From NCBI GenBank assembly GCA_016190245.1, contig JACPQY010000024.1, forward strand, positions 121,620 through 185,619: a DNA stretch of 64,000 bases, written 5' to 3'. The stretch's first letter is position 1; every line of letters starts with the position of its first letter. The translations under genes and the position numbers were made by a program. Of the stretch, positions 11,143-21,620 are shown piece by piece. This DNA comes from Nitrospirota bacterium. Its GTDB lineage: Bacteria; JACPQY01. The notes beneath the pieces are model-generated. The model ran no database searches and was not told the origin of the DNA. It saw nothing but the letters and a program-made list of their open reading frames with translations.

Positions 11143-11285
11143 CTGACTCCTGACTGACCAGCCAAGGACGATGCCGTTCCAAGGATGACTGACGGTACCT
11201 GGAGCGCCACGAAGGCTGCGGAGGGTGCGGTACCCGCCGCAACAAACCGAGCCGGATGCGAGGTAGAGGTACGGAAGGGTACTTT
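11143..11285. repeat. Direct repeat A (left copy) bracketing the MTase-helicase cassette
   Basis: The 28-mer ctgactcctgactgaccagccaaggacg (11143-11170) is identical to 21463-21490. The tail ggtgcggtacccgccgcaacaaaccgagccggatgcgaggtagaggtacggaagggtacttt matches 21560-21620 with a few substitutions. The ~50-bp core between them diverges but keeps a ccaagga/tccttgg hairpin. Confidence 0.8.
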
Positions 11286-11323
11286 TGACACCTTCCCACT
11301 GATCTTCTACTCTCCGGCTTGCA

Positions 11324-14300
11324 ATGGCCGAACGAGTGGAGCGACAGCAAGCCATATCGGAAATTCTAAGGAATCTTCACCAAACCAAAGCTAATGGGCT
11401 GAAGCAACTCTTCTGGACGGAGCTCAACTACAGCCAGGAAAACAGGCCGTTGAGCCCGCGTCCGTGGCCCGCGAGCGCCACGGAATCCCTGGATGATGAT
11501 CCGGTTCTGTTCGCCACCGGCGGCGAGGAGGGCGCGTTCCACGTCGTCTACGCGCGACTGTCCGGCGATACCCTCTCCCGCGGAGCGGAACGCCCCATCG
11601 TCAACCAACTCCTGCGCGACCATCCTTACGCGCTGTTCGTCTTCTCGAACAAGAGCCAATCGGCCTGGCATCTCCTGAATGTGAAGTATGACGACGCCGT
11701 GGAAAAGCGGCGCCTAATCCGCCGCATCTCGATTCGGGCCGGCGAGGGATTGCGGACCGCGGCAGAGCGCATGGCCTTGCTGGACCTTCAAGCCGTAAGC
11801 CCGAACCTCGTCGGGCTTTCGCCGCTCGCGATTCAACAGCGCCACGACGATGCGTTCGATGTGGAAAAGGTCACCAAGGACTTCTATCGCGAAATCGCCG
11901 ACTGGTACTTCTGGGCCATCGGGTGCGATCAGTTGTCCTACCCCCCGGACGTCCACCGGGACGACGAGAAAGCCCTTTTCCTGATCCGACTCCTCACCCG
12001 CCTGATCTTTTGCTGGTTCCTGCGGGAAAAGCGCAATCCGCGGACCGGGGAGGGCCTGATTCCTGACCCTATTTTCGATCCGCGTGGGATTGCCGGGTAC
12101 CTGAAAAACCCTTCTCCGGATTCCTGCTCCTACTATACGGCCATCCTCCAGAACCTCTTCTTCGCCACGCTGAATACTGAGATGGACCCACCCGCCGAGG
12201 AGGACAAGACTGGGCGACCACCGGAGCGCCGATTCGCGAAGGGGGCCGGCGATCACATGATTCACACCTTTTGGCGGCATAAGGACGATCTGCGCGACCC
12301 CGACGCGCTGACCCGCCTTCTACGCGGAATTCCGTTCCTGAACGGGGGTCTGTTCGAGTGTCTCGATGAACGGGAAGAAAAGGGGAGGTCGCCCTATACG
12401 AAGGAATTTCGCGTGGACGGTTTCTCGACCGATCCCGAGAAGCAGCCGAGACTGCCCAATTTCCTCTTCTATGGGCCGGGTCGGACGGCGGATCTCTCCG
12501 GCCCGTACGGCGATTCGACCCGGCGTCGCCAGACCGTCACCCCCATTCTGGAGATCCTGCGCCGGTACAACTTCACTCTCACCGAAAACACACCCTTCGA
12601 CCAGGAAGTGGCCCTCGATCCGGAACTGCTCGGGCACGTGTTCGAAAACCTCTTGGCCGCATACAACCCGGAAACGGAAACAGTAGCCCGCAATGCCACC
12701 GGCTCCTTCTACACCCCCCGAGTGGTGGTGGATTGGATGGTCGATCAGGCGATCACGGCGCGATTTGCCGGCGCCCTGAAGAATGGATCTCCCCTCGTGG
12801 GTGACCGGACGGAGAGAATTCGAAAACTCCTTTCATGGGAACACACGGATCACGATTTCAGCCCGCAGGAAACCGAAGTGCTGATCGACGCGATCGACAA
12901 CCTCAAGGCTCTCGATCCCGCCTGCGGCTCCGGCGCTTTCCCCATGGGCCTGCTCCAGAAGCTGGTCCATGTCCTGAAAAAGCTGGACCCCGAGAACAAG
13001 GCGTGGCGGAAGCGTCAGGAGGACAAGGCGAGGCAAATCGAGAGCAGCCCGACCCGCGAGGAAGCGCTCAAGGCCGTCGAACGCGCGTTCGCCCGCGACA
13101 ACGACGACTATGGCCGCAAGCTCTATCTCATCGAGAACTGCCTGTACGGCGTGGATATCCAACCCATCGCCGTCCAGATCGCCAAACTTCGGTTTTTCAT
13201 CTCGCTCGTGGTGGATCAGGCCATCGATCCGAAGGAGGAGAACTACGGCATCCTCCCCCTGCCGAACCTGGAAACGAAGATTGTGGCGGCTAACACTCTC
13301 GTCGGGCTGAAGCGGGGTCAACTCACCCTCCGCACGGGAAACGTCGAACGTCTCGAACAGGAGCTCAAACAGATTCGGCACGATTACTTCACCGCGAGAA
13401 TCTACAAGGAGAAGAAAAAGCTGCGGGCGCGGGACCGCGTCCTGTGCGGAGAGCTGGCCGAGGAGCTGGCGAAGTCCGGCGAGTTTACGACGCATGACGC
13501 CAAGCGGCTGGCCGAGTGGAATCCGTACAAGGCCAACGAGCCGGCCACCTTTTTCGATCCAACCTGGATGTTCGGCCTGACGTCCAACAAAACCGATGGA
13601 GTGTTCGATCTCGTCATCGGAAATCCTCCCTACGTTCGGCAGGAGGAACTCAAGAGCCGGATGGCCGTAGGGAGCGATGGGAAGGAGCGTCCGCTCAAGG
13701 ACGTCCTGAAAGAGCAGTACGAATGTTACGTGGGCACGGCCGATCTCTACGTCTACTTCTTCGAACGGTCCCTGCAACTGCTACGAATGGGCGGGATTCT
13801 GAGCTTCATCACGAGCAACAAGTATTTCAGGGCGGCGTATGGGGAACCCCTCCGGAGGTATCTCGCGTATGCCACGCGGCCGGCGGCGGCCCTCGATTTC
13901 GGCGAGGCTCCCGTTTTCACCTCGATCGTTGAACCAGCCATCCTCGTGGCGGAGAAGACACGACACATCAGCAAGGCGGAAGCGAAGCTGCCGGACTCTC
14001 TGGATGCGTATCCGCCGCCGGGGGACTGGAAATCCCGCGTTCTCACGTGGGTGCCAGCCAAGGATGGTGCGGCACCCCGCCAAGAAGGTCGGCCAGGAAG
14101 GTCGACGAAAGTAAGCGGGGCGCCGGGACCGGACTTCAGGGAGTTTCCGGAGATCTTCGAGCAGAAGGCCCAGGCCCTGCCACAGCGGGAGTTGAAACCG
14201 GACGGGTGGCGATTTGAAAGTCCGCTCAAACTCCGCCTCCTCGAACGATTGAAGAAGACGGGCACTCCGCTGGGCAACTACGTGAAGGGGCGGTTCTATT

Positions 14301-21100: not shown

Positions 21101-21451
21101 TTCGCCGCGGATGTCAAACACCGGGAAGCGGAGAAACAATACAACTTCAACCTGACTCACGGTCAATTGTACGCTCTTCGAGAGTTGCGCATCCTCTACG
21201 AAGCCGCCTCTGAAGAGGACATCAAGAACGGCATCCATATTTTGGAGAGGACGTTCCGCGGAGTGCTGACGGGAGCCGTGAAGCGGGAACTGAACCAGTT
21301 GCGACGAAATGGAGTGCACGGCGAAGCGCTATACAAGAACCTCGTTCGAATCTACGATCAGCACAACCTTGTTGGTGCCTCGTCCCGGCGAAGCCTCGAA
21401 TTGGAGGAACAGATAATTCCCAGGATCATCTGTAGTGAAAGTTTCGTCTGA
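18107..21451 (+). CDS. Fusion protein: N-terminal single-HKD phospholipase-D (Nuc/BfiI-like) nuclease domain + SNF2/DEAD-like helicase (ATPase core and helicase-C)
   Basis: 1114 aa. HKD motif [13 protein letters not shown]...[14 protein letters not shown] (HxK-x4-D...GSxN) lies at residues ~140-180. Helicase motif I is [16 protein letters not shown], motif II [10 protein letters not shown], motif III [10 protein letters not shown]. The C-terminal helicase domain is [13 protein letters not shown]...[43 protein letters not shown]. Confidence 0.85.
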   Translation: [1114 protein letters not shown]

Positions 21452-21462
21452 CGGCTCATCCG

Positions 21463-21620
21463 CTGACTCCTGACTGACCAGCCAAGGACGGCCATGGTCC
21501 ATGCCGTGCCATCCTTGGCGCGGCGACATATCATGGCCCCATGCCGTCCGTGGCAAGGGGTGCGGTCCCCGCCGCAACAAGCCGAGCCGGATGCGAGGCA
21601 GAAGTACGGACGGGTACTTT
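21463..21620. repeat. Direct repeat B (right copy), 12 bp after the helicase stop codon
   Basis: Shares the identical 28-mer and the conserved tail with repeat A. The central hairpin is ccaaggacggccatggtccatgccgtgccatccttgg. Confidence 0.8.

Follow-up and report, generated by a model that had tools for sequence, protein, structure and literature searches.

An N-terminal HKD domain fused to a Swi2/Snf2 helicase is the defining effector of the Type-2 BREX-related systems (PMC12839542), to which MANTIS (Gao_RL; components MtsA, MtsB, MtsC and MtsD) belongs. MtsD, an HKD nuclease joined to an SF2 ATPase, forms a dimer with one phospholipase D (PLD)-type site, acts after methyltransferase-dependent recognition of hemimethylated asymmetric sites and favours inverted pairs of such sites, and deletion of the MANTIS methyltransferase (MtsC) is non-toxic (preprint 10.64898/2026.09.23.753747). 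Foreign genes are often inserted among the genes of the DUF499-centred (Hma) group, which includes MANTIS (PMC12839542; 10.64898/2026.09.23.753747; PMC11232893), and 66.5% of Hma loci contain such insertions (PMC11232893). Another N6-adenine methyltransferase, Slr6050 (M.Ssp6803IV) of Synechocystis PCC 6803, was tentatively assigned the motif GA(m6A)GGC, and an slr6050 mutant could not be segregated; the published work on Slr6050 does not mention the helicase gene next to it (PMC6105098). Here we describe a cassette from a Nitrospirota bacterium (JACPQY01), located in a stretch of 64,000 nt (contig JACPQY010000024.1, positions 121,620 to 185,619, hereafter the window), in which a large N6-adenine methyltransferase gene is followed by a gene for a single-HKD nuclease fused to an SNF2 motor (HKD-SNF2 protein, or helicase), with other genes in between.

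We consider it likely, at a probability of roughly 0.6, that this cassette is a horizontally acquired, two-component, ATP-dependent restriction-modification-like module with independent cargo, of which the copy in the window was possibly inactivated recently. This reading draws on the gene content, the intact motifs, the conserved pairing of the two large genes, the variable cargo between them, the foreign composition and the flanking repeats, all of which were observed and are described below. The open reading frames (ORFs) of the cassette are all on the + strand (11324-14725, 14729-15259, three small ORFs, 16871-18103 and 18107-21451), and its features are as follows:

11140-11285, + strand: left direct repeat, 146 nt, with conserved blocks at 11140-11170 and 11223-11285.
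11324-15259, + strand: gamma-class N6-adenine DNA methyltransferase with a TaqI_C-type specificity domain, ~1,310 aa, with an in-frame TAG at 14723-14725.
15328-15356, + strand: promoter-like site (TTGACA, 17 nt, AATAAT; 11/12 matches) within a spacer of 41% GC.
15410-15742, + strand: 110-aa ORF, putative toxin of a toxin-antitoxin-chaperone (TAC)-like module, proposed from its position alone, with no family match.
15820-16257, + strand: 145-aa putative Xre/helix-turn-helix antitoxin (HTH_31 at E = 0.003, under the Pfam cut-off; weak matches to PADLOC PDC-M64).
16259-16759, + strand: 166-aa SecB-like chaperone, matching Rv1957 of the Mycobacterium tuberculosis TAC system and PADLOC PD-T4-9_C.
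16871-18103, + strand: DUF4143/AAA_14 ATPase, 410 aa, PADLOC candidate PDC-S01.
18107-21451, + strand: 1,114-aa HKD(PLD)-SNF2 protein, with the single-HKD nuclease at the N-terminus, then the SNF2 motor and a C-terminal region of ~280 aa.
21460-21620, + strand: right direct repeat, 161 nt, starting 9 nt past the stop codon of the helicase gene.

The methyltransferase and the HKD-SNF2 protein are a conserved pair. A scan of one genome per species (185,579 species genomes) gave 282 matching stretches, from which 80 loci were fetched. Among the 34 helicase loci with at least 8 kb of upstream sequence, 28 have an Eco57I-type methyltransferase gene upstream on the same strand, none has one downstream, and the loci with the pair span more than 10 phyla. 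The distance between the two genes varies from 250 bp to 8.5 kb; in four loci (L044, L049, L075 and L078) they are 250-622 bp apart with all intervening ORFs no longer than 120 aa, and the minimum unit therefore consists of two genes. Housekeeping genes directly abut the pair in L001 and L004. The association extends to remote homologues on plasmids, since helicase homologues with 27-33% identity adjoin a 'DNA methyltransferase' of ~940-1,290 aa in five out of six inspected records, from Haloferax, Thermococcus, Pelobacter, Rhodococcus and Synechocystis, and thus from both Archaea and Bacteria. The first-pass annotation had called the pair an unnamed restriction-like combination and had proposed to look for it in other genomes, and both the recurrence in fixed order and strand and the plasmid homologues agree with that view, as does the finding that no PADLOC or NCBIfam system model captures the methyltransferase together with the HKD-SNF2 protein.

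Divergence of the helicase and of the methyltransferase is correlated (Spearman 0.58, p = 0.001), but helicases that are at least 63% identical pair with three discrete classes of methyltransferase (~65%, 48% and 30% identity to that of the window), which indicates that the methyltransferase partner is exchangeable. Distant homologues of the methyltransferase (54-58% identity) are encoded with an HKD-SNF2 gene directly upstream and an SMC/AAA_23-type ATPase gene downstream. In two such loci (L087, 6658-15567, and L089, 6564-16014) the order is helicase, methyltransferase and then a conserved SMC/AAA_23-type ATPase of 517-679 aa, and this subfamily is possibly a three-gene version of the system.

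In the HKD-SNF2 protein, Pfam searches placed PLDc_2 at residues 125-211, SNF2/ResIII at 271-470 and Helicase_C at 697-818. The nuclease residues H145, K147 and D152 and the GSSN sequence at 175-178 are invariant in an alignment of 11 homologues, as are the motor motifs GLGKS (298-302), DESH (377-380) and QRxGRxxR (809-816). Each chain contains one HKD motif, and the single-HKD enzymes Nuc, BfiI and SauUSI need a dimer to form one active site. No modified-base reader domain of the DUF3427, SRA or EVE type was detected in the protein. Sequence searches of the PDB identified SSO1653 and RapA as the closest solved relatives of the motor, and SauUSI was not among the matches listed (the best 60 of 67 with the single sequence at E ≤ 0.01, and those with an alignment profile at E ≤ 1e-4). 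The best PADLOC model is 'C3a139, HKD+Snf2' (4e-82), which is only a cluster of accessory genes found near type III CRISPR loci (PMC6546367). The best 120 matches of the helicase are 68-78% identical, nearly all full-length, and come from metagenome-assembled genomes (MAGs) labelled as very different phyla; identities of 63-78% were found over Nitrospirota, Desulfobacterota, Verrucomicrobiota, Planctomycetota, Chlamydiota, Acidobacteriota, Chloroflexota and Cyanobacteria. The HKD domain by itself falls into hundreds of clusters at 50% identity. An AlphaFold model of the protein, made with a shallow alignment, reached a pLDDT confidence score of 42.

The methyltransferase frame 11324-14725 encodes 1,133 aa and ends at a TAG, after which the same frame resumes at 14729-15259 for another 176 aa. 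Pfam places an Eco57I domain in it (1e-35) and a TaqI_C domain that is split exactly by the TAG (profile positions 1-59 lie upstream, 65-118 downstream). Homologues are unbroken proteins, mostly of 1,200-1,320 aa, which at the position of the TAG carry mostly Tyr, and otherwise Phe, His or Val; the homologue with the closest specificity region has WDARGFYMGNTCYFIP opposite WDSEGF*SVNTTYFIP of the window. Because the homologues are unbroken and mostly have Tyr at this position, the sequence indicates that 11324-15259 is one gene with a single Tyr-to-TAG nonsense change in its specificity domain, and since the frame beyond it has stayed intact and conserved, this is a recent change, a polymorphism or an error. 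The protein collection does not contain the methyltransferase of the window; the helicase does occur in it, as 'MAG: helicase [Nitrospirae bacterium]' on a contig of 230,501 bp.

Motif I (DPACGSGAF) and motif IV (NPPY) of the methyltransferase are intact in the window and invariant across an alignment of 19 homologues, and the methyltransferase with its specificity region is closest to CamA, M.BseCI and M.TaqI (PDB sequence search, E = 4e-26). The N-terminal 140 residues form a nuclease-like mixed alpha/beta domain in the predicted model, and at residues 35-143 no D, E or K is invariant or nearly so in the 19 homologues. For this reason we read the protein as having no active PD-(D/E)xK nuclease of its own, in line with the first-pass annotation, and it does not look like a complete Type IIG enzyme, a candidate identity that we rejected. 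The AlphaFold model, again with a shallow alignment, had a pLDDT of 53 with only the N-terminal 200 residues acceptable, and a Foldseek search with it gave no match in the PDB at E ≤ 0.001. Four homologues of ~1,500 aa (P0144, P0146, P0195 and P0213) contain a Y1/RayT transposase domain (PF01797); their best alignment covers ~56% of the query, and the extra domain may be an insertion or a fusion made in gene calling. The first-pass annotation had described the ORFs and the domains of the large proteins in the same terms (a methyltransferase of 1,133 + 176 aa, a DUF4143 protein and a 1,114-aa PLD-SNF2 protein), and the profile searches that it had suggested recovered the Eco57I, TaqI_C, PLDc_2, SNF2 and Helicase_C domains and detected no DrmA or DrmB, either among the scanned ORFs of the window or in related loci with Pfam annotation.

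The space between the two genes is variable in content, with the most frequent cargo cluster present in at most six of 38 loci and a DUF4143 ATPase directly before the helicase in only four of the 38, the window included. The TAC module and the DUF4143 ATPase of the window, which had been counted among the parts of the system, are therefore interchangeable cargo. The DUF4143 protein matches its family at 4e-47, with AAA_14 (Pfam), and aligns nearly end to end with PADLOC PDLC04790 (PDC-S01; E = 4.8e-157, residues 1-406 with profile positions 11-419 of 422). The three small ORFs before it look like a toxin-antitoxin-chaperone module, with support that differs between the members: the 166-aa ORF matches the SecB-like chaperone Rv1957 (PDB 5MTW, E = 5.7e-7) and PADLOC PD-T4-9_C (2e-5), with a weak Pfam match to SecB, which upholds the chaperone of the proposed triplet, whereas the antitoxin candidate has only the weak, sub-threshold HTH_31 match listed above and searches of Pfam, NCBIfam, PADLOC and the PDB with the 110-aa toxin candidate gave no match. 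The promoter-like sequence at 15328-15356 suggests that this module is transcribed on its own. Cargo in the relatives includes an OLD-like ATPase, an SLFN/AlbA protein, HEPN-MNT, ParE-Phd and AbiEii pairs, a DRT UG21 reverse transcriptase (PADLOC 2.6e-102) and HEC-01A/B (1e-135 and 1e-44), the latter two entries in L011 (7498-9363) and L019 (4819-6605), and the pSYSX pair of Synechocystis has a VapC-family toxin gene and a small ORF between its genes.

A radical-SAM protein of the spore photoproduct lyase (SPL) family (PF20903, 3.5e-30) lies between methyltransferase and helicase at 6170-8436 of L001, and an SPL-like gene is found likewise in L003, L004, L009, L036, L040 and L052, in most cases accompanied by a partner ORF of ~270-390 aa. 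Between phyla, the SPL-like proteins share 86-90% identity. PADLOC gave no match for the copy in L001, and the protein could represent an accessory or DNA-modification module not recognised so far. As candidates for core components of the system, the SPL-like gene and its partner were rejected, being present in about seven related loci and missing from the window.

The cassette has a GC content of 57.8% against 65.1% in the remaining window, in line with its earlier description as AT-richer than its flanks, and all 68 windows of the same size outside it have at least 64.2%. This low GC content, together with the identity of the helicase across phyla, identifies the cassette as a horizontally acquired block of ~10 kb. 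The direct repeats reported to enclose it are real: the copies of 146 and 161 nt share a 31-nt block at 97% and a 63-nt block at 92% identity, separated by a poorly conserved middle with indels (~76% overall), and a 41-nt core occurs twice in the 64-kb window and was matched in 0 of 100 shuffles. The left copy ends 38 nt upstream of the methyltransferase ATG. Direct repeats in corresponding positions were found in four of 29 other cassettes, namely L004 (60 nt, 93%), L011 (85 nt), L062 (33 nt) and L070 (50 nt), with sequences unrelated to those of the window; in L004 (1693-1752 and 13399-13458), the upstream copy is formed by the 3′ end of the TP_methylase-family gene next to it. The recurrence of this layout is consistent with recombination-mediated insertion in which a short target is duplicated. 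An independent Logan assembly of the same sample (SRR12113385; L086) breaks ~95 nt past the helicase stop codon, inside the right repeat, which is consistent with the repeat confusing the assembler.

While the repeats do bracket the block, they do not fix its left edge. The last part of the ORF at 10287-11108 encodes the C-terminal portion of an ISKra4-family transposase (NCBIfam 1e-54; 236-421 of 422 profile positions), and a comparison of 80 related copies of this insertion sequence (IS) showed that IS homology ends at ~11139-11142, where the left repeat begins. The left edge of the left repeat is thus set by the IS insertion, and does not necessarily reflect its original extent. The IS itself is a fragment (10485-11141), with the C-terminal part of the transposase and an intact right end, its 5′ half being missing. 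Several other origins of the repeat were considered: it is not part of the IS, given where the homology to 27 related ISKra4-family copies ends; it does not look like a dispersed element within the sequences searched, the window having just its two copies and 85 related loci having none, and a 30-mer of it had no match in a metagenome collection; and it is not explained as an RNA, with no Rfam match at gathering thresholds and chance-level matches only at E ≥ 1. No tRNA genes were found in a search made to explain the repeats. A candidate promoter where the left repeat ends (TTGACA, 17 nt, TACTCT) failed the criteria of the scan and was set aside as a weak visual lead.

To the right of the cassette, 21751-21887 is what is left of a kelch-repeat gene, its last blade and 3′ end; this relic has 77% identity to the end of an intact gene at 10063-10175, and its stop codon reads CAG in place of TAG. 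Most of a tandem kelch paralogue may have been replaced by the cassette. An ORF just right of the cassette on the - strand (21861-22328) has a weak match to a CopG antitoxin (E = 2e-4, under the cut-off) and may be a remnant toxin-antitoxin gene. Further on, a palindromic repetitive extragenic palindromic (REP)-like element at 22530-22603 (arms CGTCTTTCCCGCGAAAGCGGGAATCCAG and complement) has a 73%-identical copy at 30976-31054, 8.4 kb away.

We propose that the ~1,310-aa methyltransferase (M) would read a short, probably asymmetric DNA motif via its own specificity domain and mark host DNA with N6-methyladenine. Two molecules of the HKD-SNF2 protein (R) would join to build one PLD active site, and the SNF2 motor would move R along DNA using ATP and allow it to cut DNA with unmethylated sites, with the methyltransferase probably providing recognition or being coupled to it. 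The region between the genes would serve as a docking bay that takes up other defence and addiction genes, each acting independently, and the block probably entered the genome through recombination at a short sequence of which a copy now lies on either side. The Tyr-to-TAG change would truncate the specificity domain, and the system may thus have been inactivated recently in this genome. A broader interpretation, which we hold tentatively and at somewhat less than even odds, is that the pair represents an undescribed class of two-component ATP-dependent restriction-modification systems, in which a near-invariant nuclease-motor works with interchangeable methyltransferase/specificity subunits, the gap is a dedicated landing site for defence genes, and the unit moves without a recombinase of its own, leaving short duplicated targets.

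A number of observations weigh against a two-component restriction module. The interruption of the methyltransferase means that the copy in the window may be inactive; six of the 34 loci have no detectable full methyltransferase within 10 kb upstream; and the pairing of similar helicases with three methyltransferase classes argues against a tight co-evolved interface. The structural models (pLDDT 42 and 53) are too poor to support either dimerisation or an M-R interface, and the two hints in the literature on whether R needs M disagree, with MtsC knock-outs non-toxic and the slr6050 mutant non-segregating. The left repeat edge coincides with the IS end and there is no recombinase within the cassette, both of which weigh on the proposed route of integration, and we found neither a name for the pair nor a restriction or phage-defence test of it in the literature.

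Some of these observations would be expected if two independent defence genes simply lay side by side, that is a Type IIG enzyme or an orphan methyltransferase next to a stand-alone PLD-helicase nuclease like SauUSI (Type IV), HmaA or Hna. The top PADLOC matches of the methyltransferase are Type IIG models (1e-94), solitary nuclease-helicases such as HmaA are able to defend alone (PMC11232893), and both the mixed methyltransferase classes and the six loci lacking a full methyltransferase sit well with independence. Chance neighbours would not be expected to keep order and strand in 28/34 loci, however, or to stay together at 27-33% helicase identity in Archaea and Bacteria; moreover, the N-terminal domain of the methyltransferase lacks the invariant catalytic residue of a complete Type IIG enzyme, the helicase has no detected DUF3427, SRA or EVE reader, and SauUSI was not among its listed PDB matches. 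We therefore regard independent genes as unlikely, and the methyltransferase and HKD-SNF2 protein as working together remains the reading that we prefer. A quite improbable alternative is that the pair is a reduced or decayed form of a system already named (class 1 DISARM, or a BREX-related/MANTIS system centred on DUF499) whose other genes were lost. The core of the helicase does match DrmD (PADLOC 1e-38; NCBIfam 153 bits) and the methyltransferase DrmMI (5e-28), and HKD with Swi2/Snf2 defines the Type-2 BREX-related effector (PMC12839542). Yet the matches remain far below the family cut-offs (NF038317, 153 bits against 610; NF038318, 101 against 950; BREX-1 PglX, 43 against 500), the methyltransferase is of the NPPY Eco57I/TaqI_C type and not of the DPPY type of MtsC, and Pfam searches detected no DrmA, DrmB, DUF1998, DUF499, DUF3780, PglZ or BrxC in the cassette, in the scanned window ORFs or in the annotated related loci. 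Housekeeping genes directly abut the pair in L001 and L004, and the same two-gene layout recurs in dozens of species, unlike the product of random decay.

The pair might also serve a purpose other than defence, with the methyltransferase as an epigenetic regulator and the SNF2 protein as a RapA-like remodeller or repair enzyme. SSO1653 and RapA are indeed the closest solved relatives of the motor, and M.Ssp6803IV was reported as essential in Synechocystis (PMC6105098). Such a role is hard to reconcile with a foreign composition, a helicase that is near-identical across phyla, relatives on plasmids, an invariant nuclease motif, the consistent association with toxin-antitoxin and known defence genes, and a spread as patchy as 282 stretches among 185,579 species genomes, and we consider it very improbable.

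Should the pair restrict DNA in the proposed way, no simpler relative of the group formed by DISARM, BREX and MANTIS would be known, with one methyltransferase to read the site and one motor-nuclease, and the pair would be a tractable model for the coupling of a methylation mark to an ATP-driven PLD nuclease. The close subfamily is widespread, as the 282 stretches attest, and current defence-finding tools would most likely report the family as a lone 'Type IIG' enzyme. The cargo bay between the genes could be mined for new defence genes, the SPL-like gene pair being one candidate. The copy in the window is by itself of lower value, because its methyltransferase carries a stop codon.

Among known systems, the cassette was at first compared to DISARM, and the resemblance to class 1 DISARM holds loosely at the level of the domain inventory, with an SNF2 helicase that has a DrmD-like core, a PLD nuclease and a large Eco57I-type N6-adenine methyltransferase. 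Membership was rejected: DrmA and DrmB, the core of DISARM, are absent, as had been noted before, the DrmD cut-offs are missed, and PLD is fused to the N-terminus of the SNF2 chain, whereas DISARM has it as the separate DrmC. BREX membership was rejected on the absence of PglZ and BrxC and the low PglX score. The architecture, earlier thought to be unrecognised, has no name that we could find, but was noticed in passing before (PMC9881135, Table 3; cluster C3a139 in PMC6546367).

The methyltransferase resembles the Type IIG/IIL enzymes (Eco57I, MmeI, Cj0031) in its overall build: a single chain runs from an N-terminal domain through a helical region (LNGGLF and motif X) and the gamma-class NPPY methyltransferase to a specificity domain at the C-terminus (TaqI_C in both halves). 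It differs from them in having no conserved catalytic residue N-terminally, the nuclease presumably being supplied in trans by a separate, ATP-driven HKD-SNF2 protein. With Type III and Type ISP enzymes it would share the principle of a methyltransferase reading a short, probably asymmetric site combined with an ATP-dependent motor-nuclease; Type ISP has the same four functions in one polypeptide, whereas the cassette has them in two, and in comparison with both types its nuclease is HKD and not PD-(D/E)xK or Mrr, and the SNF2 motor family and the methyltransferase class differ. SauUSI likewise joins a PLD nuclease, at its N-terminus, to an SF2 ATPase and acts as a dimer, but it works by itself on modified cytosines via its DUF3427 reader, whereas no DUF3427 was detected in the cassette protein, which is coupled to a methyltransferase. 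The HmaA model of PADLOC matches only residues 710-820 of the helicase.

The pSYSX locus of Synechocystis PCC 6803, where Slr6050 neighbours a helicase, shares the two-gene architecture with an Eco57I methyltransferase. Its helicase aligns full-length to that of the window (26% identity, E = 6e-93), but it is a remote relative, with the helicase gene first and a methyltransferase that is 26% identical over the catalytic core. By architecture, the closest characterised effector is MtsD of MANTIS, and so the nearest parallel is not with DISARM: in both, a protein of ~1,100 aa with an N-terminal single-HKD/PLD domain and an SF2/Swi2-Snf2 ATPase is found beside an N6-adenine methyltransferase, with restriction-modification-like logic. 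The fusion of HKD to a Swi2/Snf2 helicase that defines the MANTIS effector is thus present in the cassette, as a correspondence at the level of architecture only. Membership of MANTIS was nonetheless rejected, since the cassette has neither the DUF499 AAA+ ATPase (MtsA) nor the DUF3780 protein (MtsB), its sole ATPase besides the motor being DUF4143/AAA_14, and where MtsC is of the DPPY type, the methyltransferase of the cassette is a CamA/TaqI-like Eco57I/NPPY enzyme that brings its own recognition module, TaqI_C.

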